A DNA stretch of 64,000 nucleotides, from contig CAYIFA010000001.1 of NCBI GenBank assembly GCA_964362625.1, forward strand, positions 2,994 through 66,993, given 5' to 3'. The translations under genes were made by a program, and so were the position numbers. A model generated the notes under the pieces. It was not told where the DNA came from, made no database searches, and worked only from the letters and a program-made list of their open reading frames with translations. Below, in pieces: positions 3,961 through 64,000 of this stretch (position 1 is its first letter; every line of letters starts with the position of its first letter). The stretch comes from an uncultured Candidatus Saccharibacteria bacterium (lineage in GTDB: Bacteria > Patescibacteriota > Minisyncoccia > 1-14-0-10-42-19).

Positions 3961-4854
3961 TCAAGAAAATTTACGGAAATTCTGCTTTTTATTTTTAAGC
4001 CATTCCTGATCATGCATGCTGACATCTTCGGGAGTAAGCCCCTGTGTAGCTAAAATTGCTTCGTTGAATTTGCGATCGCGGTGGAATAAGGCGGCGGCTT
4101 CCGCAAGCCCGCAATTTTCGAGATGAGAAATTAAAGCGTCGGTGTCTTTTACGAAACAAAATCCGCCGTATCCGCGGTAACCACCGTGGTGTACATCAAG
4201 ATGCGAGTGTCCAATCCGTGAGTCAGCGCCAACTGCTTTACGAATATTCTCGAAATCGGCTTGATGGTACTTTGCTAAATCATAAACGGCATTAGCAAAG
4301 GTAATTTTTCTTGCCAAAAAGACATTCGCGGCATATTTTACGATTTCAGCTTCGGTCGCGCTCAAATTTAATGCGTTAGACGGCGACGCGAGCGGCGCTT
4401 TCGGCAAAAGCGATAAAACAATCGCGGCTGCCTCGCGACTGCCCAAAGTCCATCCAACCAATTGCCGCTCGGGCTTGATAAAATCCTGCCAAGCGGACTT
4501 TTCGGTGAGAAACTCCGGATTAAAAAATAGTTTGTGCTTTGGGTTAGCTTTTTGTAAACTTTCGGTAGTTCCGGGAGGTACAGTTGATTTTATAACCACA
4601 ATCTTAGAACCGCCTATTCCGGCTACTGCTTCCTCAACTATTGAAGTATCGGCAGAACCGTCTGCCCAACGCGGGCTTGGCACGCAAATGAAAATTACAT
4701 CGGCGCGATTAATATCGTCGGAAAATCGTTTGGCCGGATCTTTATCGTACAAAAACAAATTGCGCCCATGTTCATATGCCTTATCCTCGAACCATTTCTT
4801 AAGCGGCCCACCAACCATTCCGACCCCCACTATGCCGACTTTATATTTCATCAT
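3961..4854 (-). CDS. UDP-glucose/GDP-mannose dehydrogenase family protein, short form lacking the usual C-terminal nucleotide-sugar-binding domain
   Basis: An N-terminal Rossmann motif (KVGIVGVGMVGGPL) and the catalytic-Cys motif GGFCFVKD (compare GGSCFPKD in UGDH) are present. The start is trimmed to MMKYK. The protein is only about 297 aa. Confidence 0.65.
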   Translation of the reverse strand: MMKYKVGIVGVGMVGGPLKKWFEDKAYEHGRNLFLYDKDPAKRFSDDINRADVIFICVPSPRWADGSADTSIVEEAVAGIGGSKIVVIKSTVPPGTTESLQKANPKHKLFFNPEFLTEKSAWQDFIKPERQLVGWTLGSREAAAIVLSLLPKAPLASPSNALNLSATEAEIVKYAANVFLARKITFANAVYDLAKYHQADFENIRKAVGADSRIGHSHLDVHHGGYRGYGGFCFVKDTDALISHLENCGLAEAAALFHRDRKFNEAILATQGLTPEDVSMHDQEWLKNKKQNFRKFS

Positions 4855-4879
4855 ATTGAATATAATATTCCAAAATAAA

Positions 4880-4910
4880 TGCAAAAAAAAGAGGCTGGAT
4901 TAACCAGCCC
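4880..4910 (-). terminator. Rho-independent terminator downstream of NeuB paralog 1
   Basis: A ggctgg / ccagcc stem preceded on the plus strand by an A8 run, which gives a U-run on the minus strand. Confidence 0.6.
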
Positions 4911-4917
4911 CAATACT

Positions 4918-5928
4918 CTATTCAATATCTGTCCATCGGATAATGCTGTCTTCGGTTATGTTATGTTTGGCCCTCTGCCCAATAACTTTATAAAGAAACT
5001 TAGCCGGGATGCCGTCATATAGCGGCCGCTTGGTTGATATGTCTTCGACGCCAATAATTTTTCCGGCAGGGACATCCTTAACAGTCACTACGGCATGACG
5101 CGCCCATTCGATAATAGGTCGTTCCTCGGAGAAAATTATCTTTACATTACCGCGAGCTTTCTCAATTTTTCGTACGCCATCTACAAGCATTTTGAATTCG
5201 TGCCGCTCCAATGAAACTTTGTGATCGCTGGTTCCTACGGTATTTCTATTCAAGGTGTAATGCTTCTCGATCAACGAAACACCATACGGCACTGCCGCAA
5301 TCGCAGAGAATATTTCCGGAGTATGATCAGACAACCCCACCGCCACTCCATAACGTTCTCTCATTTTAGGAATGACCCCCAAGTTAAGCCGCTCATAAGG
5401 CGTCGGATAAATCGATATGCAATGAACCAACATAAACGGGGTGCCATATGACCCGACAAGCTCAACTGTCTCGGTTATCTCCTGATATCCGCTCATGCCG
5501 GTGGAAATAATCATTGGCTTGCCTTTTCTGGCAATGTGCTCGATGAACGGTAAATCGGTCATTTCGCCCGAGCCGATTTTGAACGCATCAACACCGATTT
5601 CTTCCAATTGGTCAGCGGCCTTACGCGAAAACGGCGTACACAAAAAGTAAAGTCCTTTTGTTTCAGCATAGCTCTTAAGGTCGGCCAATTGACCGATTGA
5701 TAACGAACGCTTCCCCTGCATGAAGAATTTAGGATGAGAACGAATCATCTCCTCTCTCGGGATATGCAGTTGGAACTTCACTGCGTCAACGCCGGTACTT
5801 TCGATTTCGTCAATCATCCGCTTGGCAACTTCAAAACTGCCTTCATGAGTATTGGCAACTTCGGCTACAATAAACACCGGCTCGAAATCACCAACGAGTT
5901 TCCTGCCGAGCCTGATTCGCTTTAACAC
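4918..5928 (-). CDS. NeuB-family nonulosonic acid synthase (N-acetylneuraminate/KDN/pseudaminate synthase-like), paralog 1
   Basis: It has a PEP-condensing TIM barrel (FIVAEVANTHEGS, KFQ) and a C-terminal SAF domain. Length is 336 aa. Confidence 0.85.
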   Translation of the reverse strand: MLKRIRLGRKLVGDFEPVFIVAEVANTHEGSFEVAKRMIDEIESTGVDAVKFQLHIPREEMIRSHPKFFMQGKRSLSIGQLADLKSYAETKGLYFLCTPFSRKAADQLEEIGVDAFKIGSGEMTDLPFIEHIARKGKPMIISTGMSGYQEITETVELVGSYGTPFMLVHCISIYPTPYERLNLGVIPKMRERYGVAVGLSDHTPEIFSAIAAVPYGVSLIEKHYTLNRNTVGTSDHKVSLERHEFKMLVDGVRKIEKARGNVKIIFSEERPIIEWARHAVVTVKDVPAGKIIGVEDISTKRPLYDGIPAKFLYKVIGQRAKHNITEDSIIRWTDIE

Positions 5929-5931
5929 TGT

Positions 5932-6810
5932 TTAATCCTCCTTGATGAGTAGTTTGTCCTTGGCATAATACCCGACACCAATCATCCCGGCCTTATTGCC
6001 GTAGCGAGCTTTTCTGACTTTGATCGGTTTACCGCTAAGACCCCTAACTTTTTTTTCAAGTTCTCGTTTGTAAAATGGAAAAAGCAATTCGGTAATGCCG
6101 CCACCCATAACAACCGTACTAATATCGAGCAAATTCACTGCGTTCTGAACGGCTAAAACAAAATAGGGGAATTCGTCGGCTTGCGCCTGCCACAGCCGCT
6201 GGAGCTTCTCTGTTTTAAGTTCGGGGATACTCAGACTTAAATTAAGCGCGATCGCCCGGCCCGAACATAGATCTTCGATGCTGTAGTAATATCTTTCGCG
6301 AGAATCATAAATTTTTCCGATGCCGAATTCCCCGGCAAAACCAAGTTCTCCCTCTACAAGTTGCCCGTCAAGAACTACTCCTCCTCCTATTCCAGTTCCA
6401 ATGGCTAAGAACAAAAAGTTCTTAGGCGCATTCCGGCTTGAAGATAACTCGCAATAGGCCGCCGCGGAAACGTCATTAAGCGCGATTACCTGCCATTGCG
6501 TGAGCGACCCGATTTTTTGGAAATCAAGTCTCTTTATAAATTGAAACGGTCTCCAAGCCACCACCTTATAATCTCTAGTGATGCCCCCAGTGCAGGCAAA
6601 AGCCAGAGCGCTTATGGCATTGTCGTAAGAATGGATCGTCTCCACCAAGAAATTTTCAAATTTCTTTTTATCAGTAAAAGGAGTAGTAGAGGCCGCGTCC
6701 AGATATTTAAACCGATAATCATCCGGACTAAAAAGCCCCGACTTTACCGAGGTCCCGCCAATGTCAAAACAGAGAATTGGTCGGTCATCAACCAGCACGC
6801 CAACCTCCAA
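5932..6810 (-). CDS. ROK/glucokinase-like ASKHA sugar kinase, candidate ManNAc or hexose 6-kinase
   Basis: A phosphate-1 motif (CFDIGGTSVKSG) and a ROK-like motif (LAIGTGIGGGVVLDGQLVEGELGFAGEFG) are present. No obvious CxCGxxGC zinc motif was found. Confidence 0.65.
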   Translation of the reverse strand: MEVGVLVDDRPILCFDIGGTSVKSGLFSPDDYRFKYLDAASTTPFTDKKKFENFLVETIHSYDNAISALAFACTGGITRDYKVVAWRPFQFIKRLDFQKIGSLTQWQVIALNDVSAAAYCELSSSRNAPKNFLFLAIGTGIGGGVVLDGQLVEGELGFAGEFGIGKIYDSRERYYYSIEDLCSGRAIALNLSLSIPELKTEKLQRLWQAQADEFPYFVLAVQNAVNLLDISTVVMGGGITELLFPFYKRELEKKVRGLSGKPIKVRKARYGNKAGMIGVGYYAKDKLLIKED

Positions 6811-6856
6811 TCAAACCGCATCAAGGCTCAATTTCTGCAAATAGTATAACTTATAT

Positions 6857-7570
6857 CTAGATGTTTTTCAACGCGCGCTCGGCTAAAGACCAATCTTCCG
6901 GTTCATCAACATCAACGGCATATTTTGCATCTATTATATATGGCGCCACATGCTCACCGAAAAAATTAGGTTCGGTTTCATCAAATATAAAATGAGTTTT
7001 TAACAAATAAATGGAAGTATTATTCCAATATGCTTTTGGCACAGCTTGACGCGGAACGATTCTATTTCTTACCGGATTGCCGTTGAAAAGCTGGAGCCCG
7101 CCTTTTTCATTGACTACCATCGCGCGGTGCGGACTAAAATGAACCGGCATTTCCGAAATTCCCAGGACCGAATCAGCGCCGCTATTTAAAAATAATTCTA
7201 CTGCCTCCTTGATGTGAAAATCCTGACGCAATGGCGAAGTCGGTTGCAGAATCATTACCGCATCCGGCCCATAGTTTTCATTCTCTGCGAGCCACTTGAG
7301 CGCATGTTGAACCACCGGCATGGTTGGCGTATCGTCTTTGGCCAGTTCGGCCGGCCGCATAAACGGGACTTCACAGCCATTTTGCTTAGCAACTTTCGCA
7401 ATAGCCTCATCGTCAGTAGTTAAAATAATCCGGTCAAGTGAAGCGGATTTTTTCGCGGCCTCAATGGTATAAACAACAAGGGGCTTTCCGGAGAGTAATT
7501 TTATGTTTTTACCCGGGATACCTTTTGATCCACCGCGCGCAGTGATAATGCCCAAAATTTTAGGATTCAT
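6857..7570 (-). CDS. Acylneuraminate cytidylyltransferase (CMP-NulO synthetase) family, paralog 1
   Basis: It has the ITARGGSKGIPGKN N-terminal motif and the PTSPLR motif, both typical of CMP-NeuAc and CMP-KDO synthetases. Confidence 0.85.
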   Translation of the reverse strand: MNPKILGIITARGGSKGIPGKNIKLLSGKPLVVYTIEAAKKSASLDRIILTTDDEAIAKVAKQNGCEVPFMRPAELAKDDTPTMPVVQHALKWLAENENYGPDAVMILQPTSPLRQDFHIKEAVELFLNSGADSVLGISEMPVHFSPHRAMVVNEKGGLQLFNGNPVRNRIVPRQAVPKAYWNNTSIYLLKTHFIFDETEPNFFGEHVAPYIIDAKYAVDVDEPEDWSLAERALKNI

Positions 7571-8729
7571 GAAACACTTTTTGTGTATAAAGTGGAATTT
7601 TACTTAAAATTCTTACAATATTTTCGCTTGTATTTGGTTTAAAATAGCCTTTAAAGCCGGGATATTTGCCATGCCGAAGCTGATATTTGATGGCGTCCGC
7701 AATTTTGGCTGAACCGTAATCTCCATCCACGTCGATCACGCTTGGAGCGCGCAAACGTCCGGCCTGGCGGCTACCGATATTTACCGTCGGCACACCCAAA
7801 AATGACGCTTCTTTTATTCCGGATGAAGAATTGCCAACAACAATCGCAGCCTTTCTCAAAAGCGCCACAAAGTCATCCGGCAATAAATCAATCATAAATC
7901 TTATATTCACTCCGGTGTCTCCGGATTTTTGGTCGTGAATTTCGCGTAACCTACGGGACATATCGGCAGTCCCGGCATCAATATTTGGCCAAAACCATAC
8001 CGCTGACAATTTAGCTCTAACTAATGCGTCGTATATCGCTTCAACTCCCCGCACATGATCGGCTTCGCTGGTTACCGGGTGAAACATCACCAGCGCAAAA
8101 GGTTTTTCGATGTCAACATTACCGCCCACTCCGCGTAAATTAGCGTATTCGGAAGTAATTTTTTTATTGGAATTTTTTATAAATTCTAAATCCGGCGAAC
8201 CGACATTAAAAACCATTTTAGGATTTTCGCCCATTTGAATCACATGTCTACGAGCCGCGTCATTGGTTACAAAATGAATATGCGAAAGTTTGGTTATCGC
8301 ATGCCTGACGCTTTCGTCAATGCTTCCCGTAACATCGCCCCCTTCAATGTGCGCGATAGTTTTATTAAGGTATGCGGCAGACATGGCCAGCGCCAGTTGT
8401 TCAAATCTGTCACCATGAATCAAAACTATATCCGGATTTAACTTTTCAAAAATATTTGAGGTTTCCAGGGCGATCAAAGCGGCAGTTTTTGCCATAGCTG
8501 CATGGTTGCCGCCTTCAATAACATTTAATAAACGCTCTTTAATATTGAAATTGGCGGCCTCAACATCGGCAAGAGCCTTCTCGCCGTAGCGCTCCAGCAT
8601 TATCGAGCCGCCTAAAATAACCTGCGGTTCAATTCTTGGATTTTTATGCAGTCGGGTCAACAACAATTTTATCCGCGCGTAATATGAGCGGCTCAATATC
8701 GGAATGCAAATTTTTCTCTTTTCGGCCAT
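7560..8729 (-). CDS. neuC: UDP-N-acetylglucosamine 2-epimerase, NeuC-like (hydrolysing type)
   Basis: A 389-aa GT-B epimerase fold with an HIEGG motif and wecB/neuC family architecture. It is in an operon with the CMP-NulO synthetase and NeuB genes. Confidence 0.75.
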   Translation of the reverse strand: MAEKRKICIPILSRSYYARIKLLLTRLHKNPRIEPQVILGGSIMLERYGEKALADVEAANFNIKERLLNVIEGGNHAAMAKTAALIALETSNIFEKLNPDIVLIHGDRFEQLALAMSAAYLNKTIAHIEGGDVTGSIDESVRHAITKLSHIHFVTNDAARRHVIQMGENPKMVFNVGSPDLEFIKNSNKKITSEYANLRGVGGNVDIEKPFALVMFHPVTSEADHVRGVEAIYDALVRAKLSAVWFWPNIDAGTADMSRRLREIHDQKSGDTGVNIRFMIDLLPDDFVALLRKAAIVVGNSSSGIKEASFLGVPTVNIGSRQAGRLRAPSVIDVDGDYGSAKIADAIKYQLRHGKYPGFKGYFKPNTSENIVRILSKIPLYTQKVFHES

Positions 8730-8846: not shown

Positions 8847-8853
8847 CTAGTGT

Positions 8854-8893
8854 TAAACCTAGGAGGTTTAACTATTAGACCTCCGAGGTTTAA
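8854..8893. repeat. REP-like imperfect palindromic element, family 1, copy A
   Basis: ttaaacctaggaggtttaa-ctat-tagacctccgaggtttaa. It shares the 5' 8 nt and the 3' 18 nt with the copy at 16387..16427. It lies immediately 3' of a minus-strand gene stop and before a canonical terminator. Confidence 0.7.
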
Positions 8894-8900
8894 TATGTAT

Positions 8901-10085
8901 TTACTTTTTCGCGAACTCTCGCAGGGTGCTGACAATCGCGCGGAGCGCGACGCCTTTTTCTGTTGGTTTTGGATAAAGCTGTTCTTGCTTTACCCTAAGT
9001 TCGCGGCACAAGACATTTCTCTGTTCTAGCAAATCAATAACGCTGTTAGCGATATATTGCGGTTCACCGCCAACATAGGAGGTAACTCCTTCTTCGACCA
9101 ATTCCCACTTGCCGCCAGAAACGCCCTTGAGTCGGACGCTTGTGGTAACATTTAAAAGGCTGATGACCGGCTTACGCTGGCAGACGGCCTCGATTTCAGT
9201 AGTAGAGGCAGGACCTATCAGTAAATCGCAGCCGGGAATCAAATCGGAAATTGAAACCTCTTTTGCTGATATTACTCTCGCCGGAATAGCATTCCATTTC
9301 ATCAATTCTTGATAGGACTTAACTCTGGACATTTCTTCAAAAGCAGTAAAAGTTTTTTCAACTTCTTTTTCATCCAAAGCGCGATTATCAGCATCCCTAT
9401 GCTTCGCGGCGTAATCTTTAATAAAGTTCCGCATACCATCATCCATCTCGACACGATCCCCTGGATGTCGGCTGAAAACCAATTGCCACTTACGTCGCCC
9501 AGTGACCATCCAATCCAAGTTGAAGGCCTCTAAAACACTGCTCCACATCGGCATGGTGATCGCTGATGGCTTATGCCCGACAACCAAAACAAACGTCTCA
9601 TCCAGCCGAATCCCGAGCTTGGCTCGCGACTCTTCGTATGACAGTTTCGGGAAATAAAACTCATCCCACAGCGGATTGCCGGAAGAAATAACTTTTGCTT
9701 TTAGAAAAACTTTCCGCGCCTCTCTGGCTTCCTTTTCACTCAAAACAAAAACAAAACTGGCATCAGCGCGAACACTCTCAAACCAATTACGGTTATGCGC
9801 GCAACCAAAGGTGTCGGCATAAAGTCCGTAAGGAATCCTAGCTTCGCGGGCAGCCATACACGACACAATTTCTTCTCTGGCAGTGTTGGCATTAGCCGAC
9901 ATACCTACCAGTAAAACATCTGCTGACCTTACAGCGGCAACAATCTTATCGTCAAGTACTTCAAGAGCTTTTCCTCTACCCAAAACCGGTATTACGCCGA
10001 ACTTTCCGGTTTCCAACAGCGAATCCCTGACCCTTTCGAACGCCTGCGACGGCGCGATGTCCCTAGCCACCAGCACTGCTCTCAT
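8901..10085 (-). CDS. GT-B fold glycosyltransferase-like protein (TagF/PseG-like), function unknown
   Basis: A Rossmann-like N-terminal half and a C-terminal GT-B motif (GPASTTEIEAVCQRKPVISL) are present, together with VLVVGHKPS and SRHPGD motifs reminiscent of the TagF family. It sits at the head of the neuC operon. Confidence 0.4.
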   Translation of the reverse strand: MRAVLVARDIAPSQAFERVRDSLLETGKFGVIPVLGRGKALEVLDDKIVAAVRSADVLLVGMSANANTAREEIVSCMAAREARIPYGLYADTFGCAHNRNWFESVRADASFVFVLSEKEAREARKVFLKAKVISSGNPLWDEFYFPKLSYEESRAKLGIRLDETFVLVVGHKPSAITMPMWSSVLEAFNLDWMVTGRRKWQLVFSRHPGDRVEMDDGMRNFIKDYAAKHRDADNRALDEKEVEKTFTAFEEMSRVKSYQELMKWNAIPARVISAKEVSISDLIPGCDLLIGPASTTEIEAVCQRKPVISLLNVTTSVRLKGVSGGKWELVEEGVTSYVGGEPQYIANSVIDLLEQRNVLCRELRVKQEQLYPKPTEKGVALRAIVSTLREFAKK

Positions 10086-10131
10086 CAGCTAACTCTCCTT
10101 TTTGATTTTCAACTCCGCTAGTATTATACCC

Positions 10132-10187
10132 AAAACAAAAGCCCCGTCAAGATTTGGCGGGGCGCTTACACTTCGGAAGTGTAAAGT
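10132..10187 (-). terminator. Tandem hairpins 3' of the Gfo/Idh/MocA gene (stop-proximal palindrome plus rho-independent terminator)
   Basis: A 9-bp palindrome (cttacacttcggaagtgtaag) overlaps the stop codon. A gccccg...cggggc hairpin follows, with an aaaacaaaa run on the plus strand (U-run on minus). Confidence 0.55.
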
Positions 10188-11311: not shown

Positions 11312-11964
11312 TCGTCCGATTCCTTTCTAGTTATGATTTCGGGAACATCACGAACCGAATCAATCGTAACAAATTTTTCGTTTTTCGTCCAGTTAGTAAA
11401 ACCGCTCAATATTCCGATGAAAAAACAGCCATAAGCTTCGGCGGCTACGCGATCCGGTTCGCCATCTCCAACAAAGACGGTCTGATTGCCACCAACTTGT
11501 TCAAGAGCAAAAATCTTTTCAAGTGCGCTTTCCTTGGTCTCCGGTCGCCCAAAAATTTCGGCAAAAAACTTCCCTATCCCGAGATTGTCAACGCTTTCAC
11601 CCAACGCCTCAATGGGGGTGGAGGAATTTAAATAAAGTTTGTACTTTTTTGACAATTCCTCGAGCGCCTCCCAAACTCCGCCAATCAACCCTTTCCGTAA
11701 AATACCGGTTTGCGTAATTTGGTTATATTTTTCGGCGTGTGCCCGAATAAGCGTTATCCGCTCAGCATCTCGGCGCCCCAATGCCCTAAAGATCTCATCT
11801 AAAATTACATATCTGGTTCGGACCGCGACTTTCGGAAATAGTTCAAGCGCTACCTGCTTTTCATTCTCCGGCAAATCGCCAAAGACGTCGGACCAAGCCT
11901 CGTCTTTTATACGATTGGAATCAACCAGCACGCCGTCAAAATCAAATACTATGACCTTGAACAT
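11308..11964 (-). CDS. HAD-superfamily phosphatase, candidate NulO-9-phosphate phosphatase
   Basis: HAD motif I (VFDFDGVLVDS) and motif IV (GDGEPD) are present. It overlaps the upstream gene by 4 nt and lies between NeuB-family genes. Confidence 0.8.
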   Translation of the reverse strand: MFKVIVFDFDGVLVDSNRIKDEAWSDVFGDLPENEKQVALELFPKVAVRTRYVILDEIFRALGRRDAERITLIRAHAEKYNQITQTGILRKGLIGGVWEALEELSKKYKLYLNSSTPIEALGESVDNLGIGKFFAEIFGRPETKESALEKIFALEQVGGNQTVFVGDGEPDRVAAEAYGCFFIGILSGFTNWTKNEKFVTIDSVRDVPEIITRKESDE

Positions 11965-12023
11965 AAAACCCTCCGGTAAGCTGATGTTCTTTATCTAGCG
12001 AGATAATAATATTTCCCGAAACT

Positions 12024-16427: not shown

Positions 16428-16430
16428 CTT

Positions 16431-56668: not shown

Positions 56669-56672
56669 ATAT

Positions 56673-57626: not shown

Positions 57627-58162
57627 TTATATTGACGGGGCATAAAAACAACGCCGTGCGTTTCAAGAACCTTTATGCCGAGTTTTTCACCCTTGGCCCA
57701 AGTGAGTTTCATCAACTTATCAAATTTTTCGGCGTCATGATTTACGTCAGAATATAAATCCTCTTTATCAAACATAATTGCGCCGACTCCAGTCGCGGAC
57801 ACGATATTTTCCAAATTCAAAATTCCGCGCTCGGTCTCGATTTTTGGAACAATTTCAATATGATTCGGGAGCATCTTTTTTATTTCATTAATGCTTTCCG
57901 GTTCTTCCACATTTGAAACCGCGAAATATTTGACGTGCGGAAATTGATGGGCGACGGCAATCGTCTCCTCCAAACTAATCTTGGGCTTAGGCGGCTTAGT
58001 CCGGCCCTGCGGATAATCAAGGTAAATATCATGCTTGACTTTATTTAACACTCCGCGGAGCTCATCTAAAGAATCTAACCACGCGACATTAACCCGCGCC
58101 ACCATATGCTTGGGAAACTCTACATCCATTTTATCAAGCAAGTAATGAGATATGATTAACAT
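57623..58162 (-). CDS. Hypothetical protein with a pyruvate-kinase-barrel/HpcH-HpaI aldolase-like motif
   Basis: The stretch VPKIETERGILNLENI...GAIMFDKEDL resembles the PK/HpcH signature (IENQEG...DGIMVARGDLG). The assignment is weak. Confidence 0.3.
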   Translation of the reverse strand: MLIISHYLLDKMDVEFPKHMVARVNVAWLDSLDELRGVLNKVKHDIYLDYPQGRTKPPKPKISLEETIAVAHQFPHVKYFAVSNVEEPESINEIKKMLPNHIEIVPKIETERGILNLENIVSATGVGAIMFDKEDLYSDVNHDAEKFDKLMKLTWAKGEKLGIKVLETHGVVFMPRQYK

Positions 58163-58190
58163 CTAAATACTATAGACACTGCGCATTCCG

Positions 58191-58250
58191 GTGTCAACCA
58201 GGCTCAGCTTGGCCAATAATTAAATCCCGAGATATTATCTCGGGATTTTT
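58191..58250. repeat. Palindromic repeat, family 3, copy 2 (gtcaaccaggctcagcttggccaa), followed by an 11-bp perfect hairpin
   Basis: Copy 2 lies next to the hairpin atcccgagata-tt-atctcgggat plus a ttttt tract. Confidence 0.55.
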
Positions 58251-58255
58251 ATTCG

Positions 58256-58600
58256 TTAAAAGTCCTGACCTGCGTAAAACAACTCGGCCAGCACATGCTG
58301 ACAAACCTTCTGCGGGTCAAGAACAAAAAACTGCCAGTAGCCGGGGTTGTCCTCATCCGGCTTTACAAATAGATGACACCACCAATTTTCATTCAGCCAT
58401 TTATTCAACTCGTTCTCGTCTACCGGATAATAATTGGCGTAAAGATGTGCGCCATTGGTGTACGGAAAATAAGTTGGATCGTCTCTTACCTCGAGTTCGA
58501 CATCATCCGATGCTTCGCTCTCAAGTTTTTGTTTCAGGCCGGAAATAACTGGGTCAAGTTCTCTATCGCGATACGCCGTACGCCGGTCAATCACTTTCAT
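58256..58600 (-). CDS. Hypothetical protein
   Basis: The start is trimmed to MKVIDRR. No recognisable motif was found. Confidence 0.3.
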   Translation of the reverse strand: MKVIDRRTAYRDRELDPVISGLKQKLESEASDDVELEVRDDPTYFPYTNGAHLYANYYPVDENELNKWLNENWWCHLFVKPDEDNPGYWQFFVLDPQKVCQHVLAELFYAGQDF

Positions 58601-59582
58601 GCTGACCCCCCCAGGTATACTTATACCATTTAATGGTCTGCCCAATCCCTTCTTCTAGGCTAACAAACGGTATCCACCCTAAACGATCATGGGCTTTACC
58701 GAAATTCATCATCAGAAATATCCCTCCGATTGATGGCTTATTATAATCAAATCGCACTCGGCCAAGCTTTTTTCCGGATAACCGTATCACCATCTTAGTC
58801 AGCTCTAATGTTGAATACACGATCCCGCTCCCTAAATTGAATACCTCATAAGCCAGACCGTTATCAAAGGTCAGTTCAATGAATCGCATAAGATCGCCAA
58901 TATATAAAAAGTCGCGCCGCCCTTGGCCATCTCCCCAAACTTCTATATCTCCGCTCGGCGGAGCATCCATAACCTTCTTGATGGTGGCCCCTAAAACATG
59001 TGAACGATCCAGATCGAATTTATCGTATGGCCCATAAACATTGGAGTGCCTGATAACGGTAAATCGCGTATGCCCAAGCTTAGAATAGAATTCACAGAGT
59101 TTTTCCCCGTAAATCTTCACCCAAGCGCCGGCAAAATATTTAGGATGAATGCGGTTGTAATCAACATCATCCTCGGTGACCGGCCGACCCAAATCCATTG
59201 GATAAAGCACTGAACAGCTAAGAAAAATAAAGTGCTTGACGCCGTTTTTGTGGGCGGCTTCAAGTATATTGGTATTTAGAATTGTGTTATCAAGCAAAAA
59301 TCCCGGATCATTAACAATATACTTTGCGCCAGCAGACACGGCCGCGGCATGAATCACGATATCCACATCTTCAGTAATTTTTCTAACTTGCTCTTTGTCC
59401 ATCAGGTCGCAAGTCCTTACGCTCCACAAATAGGGATTGAGAGTAAGACGACTTCCGTTATAGTCCAAAGGATGACGGCTTACACCAATAACCTCTAAGT
59501 CTTCTCTTTGCCGTAATTTGTCAAATAGGTTCTTGCCGATAAAACCGCTGACTCCTGTTATGAGCACTCTTCTAGTCTTCAT
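58587..59582 (-). CDS. NAD-dependent epimerase/dehydratase (Fcl-like)
   Basis: ITGVSGFIG and HSNVYGPYDKF motifs are present. Confidence 0.75.
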   Translation of the reverse strand: MKTRRVLITGVSGFIGKNLFDKLRQREDLEVIGVSRHPLDYNGSRLTLNPYLWSVRTCDLMDKEQVRKITEDVDIVIHAAAVSAGAKYIVNDPGFLLDNTILNTNILEAAHKNGVKHFIFLSCSVLYPMDLGRPVTEDDVDYNRIHPKYFAGAWVKIYGEKLCEFYSKLGHTRFTVIRHSNVYGPYDKFDLDRSHVLGATIKKVMDAPPSGDIEVWGDGQGRRDFLYIGDLMRFIELTFDNGLAYEVFNLGSGIVYSTLELTKMVIRLSGKKLGRVRFDYNKPSIGGIFLMMNFGKAHDRLGWIPFVSLEEGIGQTIKWYKYTWGGQHESD

Positions 59583-60388
59583 GCCGCTGACCTCACAGTC
59601 CCGCCGTCAACATTAATGACGGTTCCAGTGATGTGTTTGGCTTTATCCGAGGCGAGAAACGCCACGAGATTCGCGACGTCCTCCGGCTCACCCATACGCT
59701 GAAGCGGCGACTTCCTAAAAGTGGATGCTTTGATTTTTTCAGCGGCCTCTTCTATGGAAATATTGTCGCGATTCGCGCGATCCTTAACATTCTCTTCCCA
59801 AAGTCCTCCTTCTAAAGTATTGGGCCTTATGGCGTTTACCAAGATATTGTATCTGGCAAATTCATTGGCCATAGATTTTGTCAAATTTTCCACCGCGGCT
59901 TTGGATACGGCGTAATGCGGATTAAATTCCCCGGGCTGTTTCGCCGGAACCGCAGAAAGGTTAACGATGCGGCCGCTTACGGATTTCTTTAGCCATGGCA
60001 ATGCCTCGCGCGTAAATCTGACCACGCTCATCAAATTGAAAATCCAGTTGTCCAACCAATCGTCATCCGCAAGATCTTCAAACTTTCCGAAACTCAATGG
60101 TCCGCCGAGGTTGTTTACCAAAACGTCTATCTTGTTTAATTGTCGCCACAGCAACGATCGAAACATACCCTTAATTTCATGCGCCTTCATGGCATCCAAA
60201 CAAAAATAATGGCAATAATTTACCGACACCGATCGGACTTCATGATAAGCTAAGTGGGTTCGTGCTTCATCGCGACCACAAATGACAGTTACCGCGCCTT
60301 CCCGCGCCAATTCCATTGCAATCGCCTTGCCGATGCCGCGGCTCGAACCGGTTACCAGCGCCACTTTCCCCGAGAGCGCTAGATCCAT
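59579..60388 (-). CDS. SDR-family oxidoreductase (3-oxoacyl-ACP reductase-like)
   Basis: It has KVALVTGSSRGIGKAIA, NNLG and YAVSKAAV (YxxxK). The start is trimmed to MDLALSGK. Confidence 0.8.
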   Translation of the reverse strand: MDLALSGKVALVTGSSRGIGKAIAMELAREGAVTVICGRDEARTHLAYHEVRSVSVNYCHYFCLDAMKAHEIKGMFRSLLWRQLNKIDVLVNNLGGPLSFGKFEDLADDDWLDNWIFNLMSVVRFTREALPWLKKSVSGRIVNLSAVPAKQPGEFNPHYAVSKAAVENLTKSMANEFARYNILVNAIRPNTLEGGLWEENVKDRANRDNISIEEAAEKIKASTFRKSPLQRMGEPEDVANLVAFLASDKAKHITGTVINVDGGTVRSAA

Positions 60389-60413
60389 TTTTATCTCCTT
60401 TCTGTCTTGGGTT

Positions 60414-60971
60414 TTACGGCAAATCCACAAATCCGCGCCAATGCGCAAGCAGTACACACCCCAAAGCGGTCAACTGCTGAAACTCGCCGGAAACGACCTT
60501 GTTTTGGAATTCGCTAGATGATACAACAAAAACCTCCACGCCTCTTTCCGGTTTTCGGCTGGGATCTTTTTCGGCATCTTTGGCACAAACAATGTGCACG
60601 CGGCTATTAATGCGATCGGCTCCAAAGCGCGCGCTTCCGACATACTCCAAATTATTACAGCAATACCCAGTTTCTTCCAGAAGTTCTCTACGGGCGGCCT
60701 CTATCGGATTTTCTCCATCATCAACCGATCCGGCCGGCAGTTCCAGCATCCAGCTGTTGCAGGCCGGGCGAAAGTGTTTTATCAAAATAAATTCATTATT
60801 CCTAGTGGTTGCCACCACCACAACGCTATCCGGCATATTCATCCGGTAAATCGGCTGGCCTTTGAGCGCCGGCAAGTCAAATTCTTCGCTTTCAATGCTA
60901 AACCACGGCGTCCGGAAAACCGTTTTCTTTTCGGGCATTTCCAATCTCCTATTTATAGGGTTTTCAAGCAA
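60414..60971 (-). CDS. NUDIX hydrolase
   Basis: A canonical Nudix box (LPAGSVDDGENPIEAARRELLEETGY) is present. Confidence 0.85.
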   Translation of the reverse strand: MLENPINRRLEMPEKKTVFRTPWFSIESEEFDLPALKGQPIYRMNMPDSVVVVATTRNNEFILIKHFRPACNSWMLELPAGSVDDGENPIEAARRELLEETGYCCNNLEYVGSARFGADRINSRVHIVCAKDAEKDPSRKPERGVEVFVVSSSEFQNKVVSGEFQQLTALGCVLLAHWRGFVDLP

Positions 60972-61030
60972 CTAATTTATCTCCACGAGTATAACACCAA
61001 AATAAAAAAAGTCCAGCGTCTAATGCAAAA

Positions 61031-61963
61031 TTAGTGGTTTGAAAAATAACTTTCGCTTATGACTTGATACCCCTTAATCAATTCCTTGATGCCCTCCGCA
61101 AGGGAAACCTGGGGCTTAAATCCGGTTTTCTCTATTTTCTCGTTTGAAACAATGTAATTTCTTTTATCTTTGTCTTCGCCAATTGGCGTATCCGCAAAAT
61201 ACAAGTAAGGAATATGCTTCTTTATTTCTTCGCAAAGTTCGCGCTTGTTTAAATTGGCATCTGACAACCCGAGATTGAATGCTTGATTTTTCATTCGCTC
61301 AAAATTATCGATTGCGTACAAAAATGCCCGGCCGACATCGCGTATGTGAATAAAGTTTCTCTTGAACTCCGGTTCAAAAAGCATAATACCGGCATCATGC
61401 ACAGCGCGATAGACAAAATTATTAACTAGGAGGTCAAGACGCATACGAGGGCTCGTTCCGAAAACCGTTGCCAGGCGGAAAACTACGGCATTTCCGGCAG
61501 ACATTACCAACCGTTCCGCCTCAACCTTCAATCTCCCATATAACGAAATCGGCTTAAGCGGGCTTTCTTCGGTGCAAAAAACTCCTACTTGGCCTATACC
61601 ATAGCCACTATTGGTATTGGGGAAAATGATTTTTTGTTCCGGACGGCGCAACTCTAATATTAGTTTAACGGCCTCAAGATTTATAGTCTTGGCCTCTATC
61701 GGAAACCGATCGCAGATTGGAGCGCCGACTAACGCGGCTAGCGGAATTATTATGTCGGCGTCTTTAATATATTTTGCCATCAAATCCCGATCCCTGGCAT
61801 CTCCGCGTATAATTTGCAATTTAAAATCGTAACAACAATCCAAGAGCGTGGTTTGTTTAAAAAGAAAATTGTCGATAACAGCGACCTCGTGCCCAGCCGA
61901 CAAAAGCATCGGCGTCAATACCGACCCTATATATCCCGCTCCGCCAGTTACTAATATCTTCAT
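61031..61963 (-). CDS. NAD-dependent epimerase/dehydratase (UDP-glucose 4-epimerase-like)
   Basis: A VTGGAGYIGSVL Rossmann motif is present. Length is 310 aa. Confidence 0.8.
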   Translation of the reverse strand: MKILVTGGAGYIGSVLTPMLLSAGHEVAVIDNFLFKQTTLLDCCYDFKLQIIRGDARDRDLMAKYIKDADIIIPLAALVGAPICDRFPIEAKTINLEAVKLILELRRPEQKIIFPNTNSGYGIGQVGVFCTEESPLKPISLYGRLKVEAERLVMSAGNAVVFRLATVFGTSPRMRLDLLVNNFVYRAVHDAGIMLFEPEFKRNFIHIRDVGRAFLYAIDNFERMKNQAFNLGLSDANLNKRELCEEIKKHIPYLYFADTPIGEDKDKRNYIVSNEKIEKTGFKPQVSLAEGIKELIKGYQVISESYFSNH

Positions 61964-62005
61964 AGTTCGATTTTGCTCACTATGACCCTGAGTATAATCG
62001 AAGGG

Positions 62006-63169
62006 TCATAATAATTTTACGCTATTAACTACGCCGCAAATAAATAAAACGTCTTTCTCGCTCATTGATTCATTGTTTGGCAGAAAAAACCCGGTGGAGT
62101 GCACGCGGTCCGAAACCGGATGATGAAACTTTCCATATCGCTCATACCAAAACGGATGTAGCCCCAAATTGCCTGCCGAGAAAAGCCGAGTTTCAATGCC
62201 GCTTTTCACCAATGCCCTTACGATATTTTTACGATGTTCTGGATTTTTTGCAAGAGCGCCGAAAGAAATGCTTACTGGACGTGCCTCATTCGGCCATTGC
62301 TGAAAATCAACGGTTTTTAGATTTTTAGCGTATAGCAAATGGTTTTGATGGCGGATTTTCATAACGCGGTCGGCTTTTTTCATCATTCGAAGTCCGAGAA
62401 AAGCGTTAACATCGGTTGACCGCAAATTAAAGCCAGGAACAAAAAAAGTGAAAGGCTGGTGAAATTCATCTACTTTATGCTTGCGCATATAAGCAGAACG
62501 AACTCCTGGCGGCAAGTCCTTGCCCCAACCATGACTGCGAAGCATTAATAGCAGATGATATAAATCTTTGTTGCTGGTATTAACCATCCCGCCCTCAATC
62601 GTTGATAATTGATGGCCGAAATAAAAAGAAAAAGTGGACATGTCAGAAAACGCGCCGATTTTTTTGCCGCCGTATTCGGCGCCTAGCGCCGCGCAAGCAT
62701 CTTCAATAAGCATAAACCCATATTTTTTCTGGAGAGCTTTCATCACACGCATATGCGTCGGCACCCCAAGTACCTGCACTAACACGACGACCCCCGGTTT
62801 ATGTTTTTTTAATAAGCCCTCCAATTCCGTTAAATCCAAACCAAGACTATCCTTGTCCGCGCCGCACATTACCGGCTCGAACCCAAACTGGATAAATGGA
62901 GCAATGGTCGTTACCCAGCCGACCGAAGGCACGATTACTTTTTTATTTTTCAATTTGCCGGAAAGCAATGCCGCATACGCCGCGAGCAGATTGGCCGATG
63001 AGCCGGAATTACAAAAAACCGCGTATTTAGACCCAATCCAATCCGCCCACTTTTTTTCAAATTCTAATGTGAGCCCACCTTTGGTCAGCTGATTGTTGCC
63101 ATCGAGCCACTGTTTGAGCGCTAGAATGTCGGATCTATCTATTATATTTTTCGCTAGCTTGTACTTCAT
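62006..63169 (-). CDS. DegT/DnrJ/EryC1 family PMP-dependent NDP-4-keto-6-deoxyhexose 3-dehydratase (ColD/RfbH-E1-like)
   Basis: An RfbH-like N-terminus (LTKGGLTLEFEKKWADWIGSKYAVFCNSGSSANL) is present. In FSFYFGHQLSTIEGG, His replaces the usual PLP-binding Lys, as in ColD and the E1 dehydrase. Confidence 0.75.
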   Translation of the reverse strand: MKYKLAKNIIDRSDILALKQWLDGNNQLTKGGLTLEFEKKWADWIGSKYAVFCNSGSSANLLAAYAALLSGKLKNKKVIVPSVGWVTTIAPFIQFGFEPVMCGADKDSLGLDLTELEGLLKKHKPGVVVLVQVLGVPTHMRVMKALQKKYGFMLIEDACAALGAEYGGKKIGAFSDMSTFSFYFGHQLSTIEGGMVNTSNKDLYHLLLMLRSHGWGKDLPPGVRSAYMRKHKVDEFHQPFTFFVPGFNLRSTDVNAFLGLRMMKKADRVMKIRHQNHLLYAKNLKTVDFQQWPNEARPVSISFGALAKNPEHRKNIVRALVKSGIETRLFSAGNLGLHPFWYERYGKFHHPVSDRVHSTGFFLPNNESMSEKDVLFICGVVNSVKLL

Positions 63170-63684
63170 GCCAATTTTTTTATTTTTTCAACAAGTTTAG
63201 TTGTCGAGACTCCTTCGAATTGGGCGGGGCAAGTTCGTTTCAGGACTTCCAGTTTTATGCCATACTTATCTGCCAACTCACGGCGCGCCGTAATTCCGAG
63301 GACATCGTCATTAATAGCGTAAACATCCGGCTTTAAATCGGCAAATGCCGTTTTAATTGCTCCGAACGGAATATCATCCGTCTCGTGGGCAACCAAGCAG
63401 TAATCAACCGGCTTTAAAGATGAAACCATTTTTAGCCGCATATGCTCATTAAAGAAAGGCCGCGAGGGACCCTTTATCTGACGTATGCTCGCATCGTCCC
63501 CAACCTGAACAACCAGGACATCTCCTAATTTTCTTGCATCCTCAAAAAAAAGAACATGTCCGGGGTGAGTCAAATCAAACACTCCGGAAACAAAAACAAT
63601 TTTTTTGTCTTTATGCTCCTGCCTGATTTCTCTAAGGTCATTATGTTGAACAATCGACATGTTATTTTTTTTCATTGGCGACAT
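63166..63684 (-). CDS. Cytidylyl/adenylyltransferase-family sugar-phosphate nucleotidyltransferase (RfaE domain II/TagD-like)
   Basis: It has IVFVSGVFDLTHPGH (HxGH), ARKLGDVLVVQV and DASIRQIKGPSRP, collinear with the HldE adenylyltransferase domain. Confidence 0.75.
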   Translation of the reverse strand: MSPMKKNNMSIVQHNDLREIRQEHKDKKIVFVSGVFDLTHPGHVLFFEDARKLGDVLVVQVGDDASIRQIKGPSRPFFNEHMRLKMVSSLKPVDYCLVAHETDDIPFGAIKTAFADLKPDVYAINDDVLGITARRELADKYGIKLEVLKRTCPAQFEGVSTTKLVEKIKKLA

Positions 63685-64000
63685 AAGCGCGGCAATAATC
63701 CAATAAGAATTTTACGCTTTCTTCAAAACTATATCGCGGCTGCCAGCCGGTGGCCTCGGTGAATTTAGAGTTGTCCGGAATTTGCAAAGTGACATCAGAG
63801 GGCCGCAATAATGCCGGATCAACCCTTGAAGGTATTTCGGCCTTAGCATGTTTCTTCAGCAAATCCAAAAACTCGCCTACTTTAATAGATCTAGTCCCGC
63901 CTATGTTATACACTTCGCCGAACTCGCATTTTTCAGCAGCTGCCCAGTATGAGGCCATGGCATCCCGCACATCAAGCGGAGTGCGCACAGAATCCAGGTT
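63662..64000 (-). CDS. GDP-mannose 4,6-dehydratase paralog, 3' part only; the gene starts beyond the window
   Basis: The C-terminal half of Gmd is present (DVRDAMASYWAAAEKCEFGEVYNIGG ... ATGWQPRYSFEESVKFLLDYCRAYV). Confidence 0.7.
   Translation of the reverse strand, partial: NLDSVRTPLDVRDAMASYWAAAEKCEFGEVYNIGGTRSIKVGEFLDLLKKHAKAEIPSRVDPALLRPSDVTLQIPDNSKFTEATGWQPRYSFEESVKFLLDYCRAYVANEKK

Follow-up and report, generated by a model that had tools for sequence, protein, structure and literature searches.

A mosaic locus of CMP-ulosonic acid and putative branched dideoxyhexose genes, probably for an accessory cell-surface glycan, in a Parcubacteria-type groundwater bacterium

The window considered here is a 64,000-nucleotide (nt) stretch of contig CAYIFA010000001.1 (assembly GCA_964362625.1), in which 62 open reading frames (ORFs; g01 to g62) were defined and scanned against Pfam and NCBIfam (Table 1). 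The left 3.6 kb encode housekeeping functions (RNase III, a NusB-NUDIX fusion and RNase HII), and sugar-pathway domains are found in approximately 46 of the 55 genes from g08 to g62 (4.9 to 64 kb). A preliminary description, which had placed nearly all genes from 3.9 kb to the window end in nucleotide-sugar metabolism, is thus accurate for most of the region, the exceptions being uvrA in mid-locus, the foreign genes g39 and g40, and g07, a backbone gene outside the island. The single 60-kb superlocus of that description is better replaced by a mosaic of at least four or five separately recurring cassettes, found elsewhere in other combinations and here interrupted by uvrA. Central to this mosaic is a recurrent tailoring cassette whose signature gene, g51, encodes a fused E1 alpha+beta thiamine diphosphate (ThDP) enzyme. 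The region as a whole is probably an accessory cell-surface glycan locus of a groundwater bacterium of the Parcubacteria type within the candidate phyla radiation (CPR), with cytidine monophosphate (CMP)-activated ulosonic acids and acyl-branched dideoxyhexoses as its sugars.

The g51 protein combines E1_dh and Transket_pyr/Transketolase_C domains, and the GD(x28)DN thiamine-binding motif is invariant in 20 of its homologs. Approximately 40 full-length homologs share 49-77% identity; most are nameless, and those with names are described as thiamine-pyrophosphate-dependent or E1-type. HMMER returned 122 representatives at E<=1e-30 among 1.84 billion, comprising fused as well as split alpha-like and beta-like forms, and more than 545 metagenome stretches match the fused-E1 cassette. 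Neither a lipoyl-E2 nor an E3 gene was found in the window by Pfam. The second, split E1 pair (g37 and g38) has orthologs with 55-64% identity next to B12-dependent radical S-adenosylmethionine (SAM) genes on loci L083 and L116.

The signature gene is accompanied by genes for two paralogous 4,6-dehydratases and a sugar 3-dehydratase. The 4,6-dehydratase g41 scores 259 bits against GDP_Man_Dehyd, with matches to the gmd (167 bits) and dTDP-glucose-dehydratase (159 bits) models both under their cutoffs, and its paralog g62 is 327 amino acids (aa) in full on contig L087. In g60, His186 aligns with the catalytic His188 of ColD at a position where aminotransferases have Lys, and His occupies this position in 37 of 37 DegT-family neighbours of fused-E1 genes in the sampled loci. 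The reading of g60 as a DegT or PseC-like aminotransferase was rejected on account of this His, and with it the amidated or aminated sugars that had been expected from a DegT aminotransferase. Among the remaining partners, the sugar kinase g42 has HddA as its best NCBIfam match, g48 carries by eye a PfpI-type Cys-His dyad, and the cupin g49 has invariant His69, His71 and His110; some g49 homologs are annotated as mannose-6-phosphate-isomerase-like and some carry PF01050. The HemN-type enzyme g43 contains the CxxxCxxCxC and GGGTP motifs and aligns end to end with Escherichia coli HemN (1OLT, residues 19-462), and its orthologs lie within the cassette on L083, L085, L092 and L164 (39-45% identity). 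No heme-pathway genes are present in the window, and CPR bacteria are generally thought to lack heme synthesis. The radical SAM enzyme g35 matches TokK (7KDX) in the Protein Data Bank (PDB) with 330 bits over 435 residues and CysS with 188 bits, scores 234 bits against the KedN5 family (cutoff of 700), and has orthologs inside the cassette on L085 and L086 (51-53% identity).

Recurrence of the cassette was followed in the neighbourhoods of four g51 homologs and in 80 metagenome loci drawn from the family profile (84 loci in total), with gene counts made on the 34 loci of at least 12 kb (Table 1). In the long loci the E1, DJ-1 and cupin genes form a contiguous group. On L085 and L086, orthologs of the genes at 35-38 kb of the window (g34 and g35, with the g34 ortholog coming after the TokK-like gene) and of those at 44-64 kb lie together in approximately 18 kb, so that the window appears to hold one cassette that has been spread out and padded. 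Loci with the cassette include marine TARA contigs, a 1.07-Mb contig and the 459-kb contig L125, which is tied to Candidatus Niyogibacteria via one of its proteins. A Y1 transposase gene of the IS200/IS605 type lies within the L085 cassette, between the PhyH and TokK-like genes (15109-15783), consistent with reshuffling of the cassette by mobile elements.

Table 1. Genes and features of the window, with the recurrence of cassette genes among 34 sampled loci. GT2, family 2 glycosyltransferase; GT-A, glycosyltransferase fold A; HAD, haloacid dehalogenase; SDR, short-chain dehydrogenase/reductase; PLP/PMP, pyridoxal/pyridoxamine phosphate; NDP, nucleoside diphosphate; APS, adenosine 5'-phosphosulfate; NMNAT, nicotinamide mononucleotide adenylyltransferase.
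Feature	Position (nt)	Strand	Assignment (source)	Loci with homolog (median identity)
g07	3961-4884	-	Short UDP-glucose/GDP-mannose-dehydrogenase-like protein, N-terminal and central domains only (Pfam)	
Cassette I, sialic-acid-type	4918-8729	-	g08 NeuB+SAF (4918-5928); g09 ROK kinase; g10 CMP-transferase; g11 NeuC (Pfam, NCBIfam)	
Cassette II	8901-18633	-	g12; g13 weak GFO/IDH/MocA; g14 HAD phosphatase; g15 NeuB-cupin fusion (12024-13568); g16 CMP-transferase; g17 transketolase; g18 SDR; g19 NeuB+SAF (17551-18633) (Pfam, NCBIfam)	
uvrA	18724-21567	-	Housekeeping gene splitting the locus (Pfam)	
g21	21654-23021	-	TagB/TagF-like soluble protein; Glyphos_transf 48.7 bits (Pfam)	
g22-g25	23230-26533	-	g22 epimerase/dehydratase; g23 weak GT-A-like; g24 dTDP-glucose 4,6-dehydratase-like; g25 weak FdtA-like cupin (Pfam, NCBIfam)	
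g26	26573-27979	-	Second, divergent TagF-like protein; weak Glyphos_transf and BFO_1060 matches	
g27	27972-29831	-	Glutamine-hydrolysing AsnB-type amidotransferase (Pfam; TIGR01536 424 bits, cutoff 267)	
g28, g29	29926-31933	+	g28 sub-threshold PhyH-like; g29 FkbM methyltransferase (Pfam)	
g30, g31	31945-33587	-	g30 GT2; g31 weak GT-A-like (Pfam)	
g32-g34	33707-36377	-	g32, g34 GDP-fucose-synthase (Fcl)-like epimerase/reductases; g33 RmlC-like 3,5-epimerase (Pfam, NCBIfam)	g34 27
g35	36377-38440	-	B12-dependent radical SAM enzyme, TokK/CysS/KedN5 type; B12-binding and radical SAM domains (Pfam)	10 (47%)
g36-g38	38612-41677	-	g36 weak class-I methyltransferase; g37 E1 beta-like and g38 E1 alpha-like thiamine enzyme pair (Pfam, NCBIfam)	
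Insertion scar	41867-43919	-	g39; g40 (DUF84 NTPase); 76-aa ORF	
g41, g42	43823-45878	-	g41 GMD-type NDP-hexose 4,6-dehydratase; g42 GHMP sugar kinase, HddA- or fucokinase-like (Pfam, NCBIfam)	g41 19 (46%); g42 17 (52%)
g43	46078-47472	+	Full-length HemN-type radical SAM enzyme (TIGR00538 356 bits, cutoff 325)	4 (43%)
g44-g46	47534-51207	-	g44 Fcl-like epimerase/reductase; g45 PhyH dioxygenase; g46 B12-radical-SAM enzyme (49396-51207) (Pfam, NCBIfam, PDB)	g44 27; g45 11 (46%)
g47-g49	51324-53235	-	g47 NUDIX; g48 DJ-1/PfpI; g49 251-aa metal cupin (Pfam)	g48 28 (49%); g49 23 (37%)
g50	53247-53876	+	P-loop (AAA_33) kinase (Pfam); 55% ortholog in the cassette on L086	
g51	53911-55800	-	Fused E1 alpha+beta ThDP enzyme, cassette signature gene (Pfam)	
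g52, g53	55895-57626	-	g52 NMNAT-like nucleotidyltransferase plus APS kinase (55895-56668); g53 sulfotransferase (Pfam, NCBIfam, PDB)	
g54, g55	57623-58645	-	g54 179-aa fragment, pyruvate-kinase or HpcH/HpaI-like barrel (57623-58162; Pfam 22.6 bits, below cutoff; NCBIfam); g55	
g56-g59	58587-61963	-	g56 Fcl-like; g57 SDR; g58 NUDIX; g59 epimerase/reductase (Pfam, NCBIfam)	g56 27; g59 19 (60%)
g60	62006-63169	-	ColD-type PLP/PMP sugar 3-dehydratase, DegT family; best PDB match ColD (2GMS), 178 bits	24 (33%)
g61, g62	63166-64000	-	g61 RfaE-domain-II-like nucleotidyltransferase; g62 (3' part) second GMD-type 4,6-dehydratase (Pfam, NCBIfam)	

The two ulosonic-acid cassettes together encode three NeuB-type synthases (g08, g15 and g19; Pfam 142-260 bits) and two proteins with a CTP_transf_3 domain (g10 and g16). 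Within Cassette I, the hydrolysing UDP-GlcNAc 2-epimerase g11 scores 334 bits on the NeuC model TIGR03568 (cutoff of 236), the ROK kinase bears a weak likeness to ManNAc kinase, and the NCBIfam NeuB (289 bits) and PseF-like (179 bits) matches fall under equivalog cutoffs. The NeuC, kinase, NeuB and CMP-transferase would together produce a sialic-acid-type sugar, and Cassette II, which is found in CPR bacteria, would yield a second, possibly a third, CMP-activated keto-deoxy acid. On contig L171, homologs of g21, g19, g18, g17, g16, g15, g14, g13 and g12 are collinear with 46-86% identity, and as the full transketolase g17 (75% identical to its L171 counterpart) is syntenic within this block, it is assigned by gene order to the NeuB-cupin cassette. 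The matches listed for the NeuB-cupin protein include 120 homologs (57-100% identity), nearly all of NeuB+cupin architecture, and those named among the 120 come from Patescibacteria/CPR lineages (Sung-, Giovannoni-, Nealson-, Uhr-, Vogel- and Magasanikbacteria). NeuB with a cupin at its C-terminus is thus a frequent architecture in lineages bearing CPR names, and the cupin may supply the aldose substrate by isomerisation. Some NeuB-cupin homologs are additionally fused to a cytidylyltransferase (P0077 and P0151, within P0070-P0189).

Searches of all window genes with Pfam revealed no N-acetyltransferase, PseG, PseB/C/H/G or LegB/C/H set, and the window contains no true sugar aminotransferase, its sole DegT-family protein being the dehydratase-type g60. 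Legionaminic and pseudaminic acids proper are therefore unlikely products; more plausible ones would be keto-deoxy acids that are Kdn-like or novel. In related Giovannonibacteria (L169 and L170, approximately 11681-18982), a TagF-like gene comes after the NeuB-cupin gene and leads into genes for ACPS, a PP-binding protein, a MaoC dehydratase and a KR protein; this acyl-carrier set beside NeuB-cupin hints at acylated ulosonic acids in related CPR bacteria.

The block between uvrA and the insertion scar encodes further tailoring enzymes and five candidate transferases, namely the GT2 g30, the TagB/TagF-like g21 and g26, and the weakly GT-A-like g23 and g31. TagF-like genes adjoin NeuB genes on L169, L170 and L171, and the NCBIfam BFO_1060 family, to which g21 shows some likeness, is named for the ortholog of Tanf_01245, a Tannerella forsythia protein shown by genetics to transfer pseudaminic acid, which has a TagB-like domain and no transmembrane segment (PMC5420450). 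On this resemblance g21 is a candidate CMP-ulosonic-acid transferase. The divergent g26 shares 24% identity with g21, and its homolog (43% identity) lies next to a GT2 gene in the Niyogibacteria locus L125, which also has AsnB (62%) and the GT2 (44%) in common with the window. The dehydratase-like g24 scores 327 bits on its NCBIfam model (cutoff of 365), and g12, g39 and g55 were assigned to no family by the Pfam and NCBIfam scans. The tailoring set listed in the preliminary description is largely recovered: the two B12-binding radical SAM enzymes are g35 and g46, the HemN-family enzyme is g43, the two E1-like sets and the transketolase are g38/g37, g51 and g17, the AsnB amidotransferase is g27, and the sulfotransferase with its APS-kinase fusion is g53 with g52. 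For two items only part was confirmed, the PhyH assignment standing for g45 and falling short for g28 (18 bits vs a cutoff of 22, with an HxD...H pattern by eye), and the FkbM methyltransferase standing as g29 alongside a class-I methyltransferase, g36, that is sub-threshold in Pfam at 17.6 bits.

The putative sulfation genes lie to the left of the terminal dehydratases. In g52, a compact NMNAT-like domain of approximately 100 aa with HxGH and ISATKVR motifs by eye is joined to an APS kinase (APS_kinase 81 bits, with matches to PDB APS kinases), and g53 scores 48.8 bits on Sulfotransfer_1 and shows by eye motifs of the type that bind 3'-phosphoadenosine 5'-phosphosulfate (PAPS; TRSGTW and RNPLDSAMS). 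Sulfate would be added by these two proteins, and g52, which we take to be comparable to Campylobacter Cj1416/Cj1415, may produce PAPS as a minimal, non-canonical synthase, or may instead make a different 3'-phospho-nucleotide donor. As no homolog of g52 to g55 was found in the 84 sampled loci, these four genes are an add-on specific to this locus. Campylobacter-style synthesis of O-methyl-phosphoramidate by g52, g53 and the glutamine amidotransferase-like DJ-1 protein was considered; the DJ-1 gene travels with the E1 cassette and g52 to g55 occur in 0 of 84 loci, so the two are unlinked, and g53 has the PAPS-type motifs noted above.

Export functions lie just beyond the window. Contig L087, from the same sample, is 99.97% identical over 3,694 nt to window positions 60307-64000 and extends 1,420 nt further, through the complete g62 and into the C-terminal nucleotide-binding domain (NBD) of an ATP-binding cassette (ABC) exporter approximately 680 nt past the right edge (about 64678-65418 in window-equivalent coordinates; L087 3-743). 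The best families for this NBD are HepA, MsbA and PglK, and it is 57% identical to that of a full exporter, with transmembrane domain (TMD) and NBD, beside the cassette on L086; such exporters also occur on L094, L099 and L169. Proteins of the Wzx and Wzy_C types are encoded next to the cassette on L099, L105 and L107. Because ABC, Wzx and Wzy_C genes adjoin it in several genomes, the cassette is assigned, on its neighbourhoods, to surface-polysaccharide loci. A Kyte-Doolittle scan of all ORFs in the six frames of the window found none with two or more hydrophobic segments, so the window encodes no integral membrane protein, and no Wzx, Wzy, Wzz, ABC permease, phosphoglycosyltransferase or oligosaccharyltransferase is present within it. 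The earlier statement that the locus lacks an exporter, Wzx, Wzy and an initiating enzyme is thus correct inside the window, but for the ABC exporter it reflects an edge effect, as L087 shows. The glycan would be assembled in the cytoplasm by GT2 and TagF-like enzymes, with the soluble g21 and g26 the likely ulosonic-acid transferases, and exported by the HepA/MsbA/PglK-type ABC exporter past the right edge.

The genomic backbone is marked by uvrA, whose product is 77% identical to the UvrA of a Candidatus Niyogibacteria metagenome-assembled genome and approximately 70% identical to that of Giovannonibacteria, which places the host, as judged from this protein, among Parcubacteria-type CPR bacteria. 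Exact protein matches occur on contigs from 0.1-um-filtered Hainich groundwater (well H51). In Giovannonibacteria contigs (L002, L003, L005 and L007), uvrA is followed immediately by a homolog of g07, a protein that lacks a C-terminal UDP-binding domain; g07 is therefore a backbone gene, and the island begins at 4918. In a Niyogibacteria relative, the NusB-NUDIX gene follows uvrA within approximately 1.5 kb and is followed by RNase III. As relatives have g07 directly after uvrA, or NusB-NUDIX a short way after it, g08 to g19 look like an insertion into this backbone, and on L171 the homologs of g21 and g19 adjoin with no uvrA between them. In 80 related genomes, the 10 kb around uvrA contain no specific homolog of any gene from g21 to g62, and the only matches there are weak, generic epimerase/dehydratase ones (22-28% identity; L005, L056, L063 and L078). 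The NusB-NUDIX fusion itself (g04, 1743-2633) is kept beside RNase III in the Niyogibacteria relative L010 (60% over 299 aa).

Coding density is 94%, 56 of 60 genes lie on the minus strand, and tRNA and Rfam scans of the window gave zero matches. Total GC and GC at third codon positions (GC3) are the same in the glycan blocks and the housekeeping genes, so that the compositional difference raised as a check on the locus is not seen; composition is native-like, with no mark of recent foreign origin for the glycan blocks. The sole deviation is g39-g40 (41867-43150), with a GC3 of 0.29 compared to 0.46-0.48. Direct repeats of 128 nt (42465-42592 and 43792-43919; family D1, 94% identical), which copy the 3' end of g41, bracket g40 and a 76-aa Cys-rich ORF on the plus strand (43445-43675), and the low-GC3 g39 lies just outside the left copy. 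On the basis of the GC3 and the bracketing repeat, the g39-g40 region appears to have been inserted recently, by a duplicative event, and to have no relation to the pathway; neither gene has homologs among the 84 sampled loci. Two pairs of near-identical palindromic hairpins were also observed, after g12 and g18 (8852-8894 and 16386-16428; folding z-scores of -4.4 and -3.9) and after g44 and g46 (47482-47535 and 49327-49380). These families sit just 3' of genes at cassette junctions and could be shared terminators or recombination hot spots. A promoter and terminator scan gave one bidirectional terminator, between g43 and g44.

The gene content of the fused-E1 cassette suggests a pathway. A hexose would be activated by the GHMP kinase and a nucleotidyltransferase, and the 4,6-dehydratases g41/g62 with the 3-dehydratase g60 would convert it to an NDP-4-keto-3,6-dideoxyhexose, an acceptor suggested by the company that GMD-type 4,6-dehydratases keep with the ColD-type g60. 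The g51 enzyme, and separately g37/g38, would then attach a carbon branch derived from a 2-oxoacid at C-4, and the product would be reduced or epimerised by the GDP-fucose-synthase-like enzymes and SDRs. The four GDP-fucose-synthase-like paralogs, taken with two SDRs and two NUDIX proteins, recall the gmd-fcl-gmm set, and since the surrounding enzymes are of this kind the carrier is probably guanosine diphosphate (GDP). Further C-methylation and hydroxylation may be carried out by the TokK-like and other B12-radical-SAM enzymes, PhyH and the HemN-like enzyme. TokK and CysS are cobalamin radical-SAM enzymes that methylate sp3 carbons and can act iteratively; by analogy, g35 may elaborate the side chain, with PhyH as the hydroxylase. 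Two precedents support the branching step. ThDP enzymes graft side chains derived from 2-oxoacids onto NDP-4-keto-3,6-dideoxyhexose in yersiniose, erwiniose, caryophyllose and related lipopolysaccharide (LPS) sugars (PMC9306805), and the pyruvate dehydrogenase (PDH)-E1-like Plm8/Plm9 and AviB1/AviB2 have been proposed to equip antibiotic deoxysugars at C-4 with a C2 branch that comes from pyruvate (PMC4802897). The g54 fragment, whose likeness is to the central part of its barrel only, could, provided that it is a functional aldolase-like protein, supply longer 2-oxoacid donors, as ErwI does for erwiniose.

A further proposal, which we put forward tentatively and at less than even confidence, is that the cassette encodes an undescribed family of surface sugars, 3,6-dideoxyhexoses whose thiamine-installed branch is extended or forked by iterative radical methylation and which are hydroxylated. 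The pathway would be widespread in uncultivated bacteria of CPR, freshwater and marine origin, and in CPR bacteria it would contribute to the strain-specific surface chemistry on which attachment to host cells depends. A HemN-type enzyme would have been co-opted for work on sugars, and PAPS or another 3'-phospho-nucleotide donor would come from a minimal, non-canonical synthase. The product class of the preliminary description, C2-branched, C-methylated, hydroxylated and sulfated deoxy sugars together with ulosonic acids, is a reasonable one.

Several observations weigh against this interpretation of the locus as an exported glycan of ulosonic acids and branched dideoxyhexoses. The TagF-like assignments come from weak matches to BFO_1060 (44 bits for g21 and 39 bits for g26, cutoff of 200), and a PDB sequence search with g21 found no relative. 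All three NeuB paralogs and both CMP-transferases score under equivalog cutoffs, and g43 exceeds the cutoff for a genuine HemN equivalog. No initiating phosphoglycosyltransferase of the TagO/WecA type, ligase or acceptor is found within the window, nor was an RmlA/ManC-type nucleotidyltransferase. The window likewise holds no ATP sulfurylase, CysD/N or sulfate permease beside g52 and g53, where the canonical glycan sulfation set consists of CysDN, CysC, sulfotransferase and permease (PMC8743553); possible explanations are that these genes lie elsewhere, that the N-terminal domain of g52 makes APS, or that another 3'-phospho-nucleotide donor is used. The g49 model is confident (predicted local distance difference test score of 91.9), and Foldseek returned only generic cupins for it. 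Domain content, the His-for-Lys change in g60, synteny and the adjacent exporter are observed, whereas every product named here is inferred, as are the nucleotide carrier, the order of the steps and the acceptor of the glycan. Finally, the thiamine enzyme is of the E1 type and tightly linked to the GHMP kinase and to a cupin annotated as mannose-6-phosphate-isomerase-like, and could act early in the pathway.

This last point gives rise to a different reading of the same surface-glycan locus, unlikely in our view, in which the fused E1 acts as an early, transketolase- or 1-deoxyxylulose 5-phosphate (DXP)-synthase-like enzyme. The longer ketose phosphate so formed would be isomerised by the cupin, phosphorylated at C-1 by the GHMP kinase, trimmed by a HAD phosphatase and activated by a nucleotidyltransferase, following the logic of the GDP-heptose and lincosamide-octose pathways, and the product would be a higher-carbon 3,6-dideoxy sugar instead of a C-4-branched one. 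The E1, DJ-1 and cupin genes are indeed almost always contiguous and often adjacent to the GHMP kinase gene, a HAD gene comes after DJ-1 on L083, L085 and L086, and the HddA-like kinase, the RfaE-domain-II-like g61 and the names and PF01050 domains of the cupin homologs all suit such a route. E1-type enzymes normally decarboxylate 2-oxoacids, however, and from pyruvate they would form a 1-deoxy-ketose, which is no substrate for an aldose-ketose isomerase; the cupin fold search, moreover, was non-specific. The universal co-occurrence of a ColD-type 3-dehydratase also fits the published branching acceptor exactly (PMC9306805).

The lack of any membrane protein in 64 kb would accord with cytoplasmic O-glycosylation of a secreted protein, such as a pilin, flagellin or S-layer protein, by soluble transferases in the manner of the Campylobacter and Clostridium flagellin islands, with no lipid-linked polymer and with the ABC exporter unrelated. 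Campylobacter jejuni, like this locus, has three NeuB paralogs. The candidate transferases here are soluble, and the TagB-like enzyme of Tannerella is likewise without transmembrane segments (PMC5420450). We nevertheless regard this arrangement as quite improbable: at least two other genomes likewise have the cassette together with an exporter related to that on L087 at 57% identity, Wzx and Wzy_C lie beside it elsewhere, and the window contains neither a target protein nor a Maf-type transferase.

That several tailoring genes are housekeeping bystanders (a heme HemN, a PDH E1, a pentose-phosphate transketolase, an asparagine synthetase and a DJ-1 stress protein) would agree with the end-to-end match of g43 to E. 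coli HemN and its score above the HemN cutoff, with the score of g27 above the asparagine synthase cutoff, and with the presence of uvrA and g40 as unrelated genes within the region. Orthologs of HemN, both E1 sets, DJ-1, NUDIX, PhyH and the kinase, however, recur in the cassette on independent contigs, the transketolase is syntenic in the NeuB cassette, AsnB has its ortholog in the Niyogibacteria locus L125, and no E2/E3 or heme-pathway genes are found in the window, so that this explanation is very unlikely. The genes for the fused E1, DJ-1, cupin, GHMP kinase, NUDIX, PhyH, HemN-like and both B12-radical-SAM proteins recur together beside 4,6- and 3-dehydratase genes on many unrelated contigs; the HemN, E1, DJ-1, NUDIX and kinase genes are therefore, as far as gene neighbourhoods indicate, not stray housekeeping genes, and the refutation of the preliminary description that would have followed had they been so does not arise. 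Least probable of all is the small-molecule glycoside alternative of that description, an aminoglycoside-like natural-product cluster, for although it is chiefly in actinomycete antibiotic clusters that radical SAM enzymes of the TokK/CysS/KedN5 type, E1-type branching enzymes and HemN-like proteins are known, the window has no polyketide synthase, nonribosomal peptide synthetase, cyclitol or aglycone genes, it does have CMP-ulosonic-acid genes, a GT2 and TagF-like enzymes with a HepA/MsbA/PglK-type ABC exporter next door, other genomes have Wzx, Wzy_C and ABC genes as neighbours of the cassette, and the cassette is spread across small-genome uncultivated bacteria.

Surface-glycan loci as such are a known kind, and the novelty claimed earlier for the locus type is not sustained. 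What is new here is the recurrent, uncharacterised tailoring cassette, which joins colitose/yersiniose-type deoxygenation with E1-type thiamine chemistry and radical-SAM/PhyH tailoring, and its CPR setting. A description of the fused-E1 cassette was not found in the searchable literature, and a full-text search returned no paper linking Patescibacteria/CPR to nonulosonic or pseudaminic acids, a broader one yielding just a paper on Campylobacter sulfation. The genomes of CPR bacteria, which live attached to other cells, measure roughly 1 Mb; the commitment of approximately 55 kb to surface-sugar chemistry suggests that the glycan coat is central to this lifestyle, and the absence of these genes from the 10 kb around uvrA in all 80 sampled relatives suggests that it is highly variable. 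A defined acceptor, the NDP-4-keto-3,6-dideoxyhexose, and an enzyme family of 122 sequence clusters turn an odd list of enzymes into a testable pathway. If correct, it would bring new thiamine-dependent and radical-SAM carbohydrate chemistry and a first concrete handle on CPR surface glycans.

Parts of the locus can be compared with well-studied systems. With the ABC-dependent TagB/TagF, HepA and PglK pathways it has in common TagB/F-like enzymes, a GT2 and an exporter of the fused TMD-NBD type beside sugar genes; it differs in that no TagO/WecA, LCP ligase or oligosaccharyltransferase is seen in the window and that the exporter lies outside it, with only its NBD visible. As in C. jejuni with NeuB1-3 and Tannerella with its TagB-like transferases (PMC5420450), there are several NeuB proteins, NeuC, CMP-transferases and soluble TagB-like candidates, but the PseB/C/H/G and LegB/C/H sets of nonulosonic-acid loci are missing and one NeuB carries a cupin as a fusion partner and is accompanied by transketolase, SDR and HAD genes. 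The g35 enzyme shares its B12-binding and radical SAM domains with TokK, ThnK, CysS and KedN5; the known members act on carbapenem or aromatic antibiotic precursors, whereas g35 adjoins an Fcl-like sugar reductase in a glycan cassette. The genes here include GMD-type, ColD-type, Fcl-like and NUDIX counterparts of the GDP-colitose and GDP-fucose sets (gmd, colD, colC/fcl and gmm), but have a GHMP kinase, a small nucleotidyltransferase and a cupin in place of ManB/ManC, with thiamine and radical-SAM chemistry added.

The closest parallels are with branched-sugar pathways. In yersiniose A synthesis (DdhA-D, YerE and YerF) and the related erwiniose, caryophyllose and 'gastriose' systems (PMC9306805), as here, a 4,6-dehydratase and a His-for-Lys 3-dehydratase lead to NDP-4-keto-3,6-dideoxyhexose, and a ThDP enzyme and NAD(P)H reductases are encoded alongside in surface-polysaccharide loci. 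Their thiamine enzymes YerE and ErwE are acetolactate-synthase-like, and the window holds no such YerE-type flavoenzyme (TPP_enzyme_N/M/C), its own being of the PDH-E1 type, fused or split; the 3-dehydratase here is ColD-type without an E3 partner, the carrier is probably GDP where theirs is CDP, and the yersiniose scheme has no counterpart of the DJ-1, cupin, GHMP kinase, PhyH, B12-radical-SAM and HemN-like partners. Compared by domain type and context, Plm8/Plm9 (paulomycose), AviB1/AviB2 (eurekanate) and the kosinostatin enzymes (PMC4802897) are similarly PDH-E1-like proteins encoded among NDP-4-keto-deoxyhexose genes without E2/E3, but they belong to Streptomyces secondary-metabolite clusters with aglycone genes, whereas the enzymes described here lie in surface-glycan loci of small-genome uncultivated bacteria and one copy is fused. 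The pathway logic proposed for the cassette would thus connect LPS sugars such as yersiniose with antibiotic sugars such as paulomycose.

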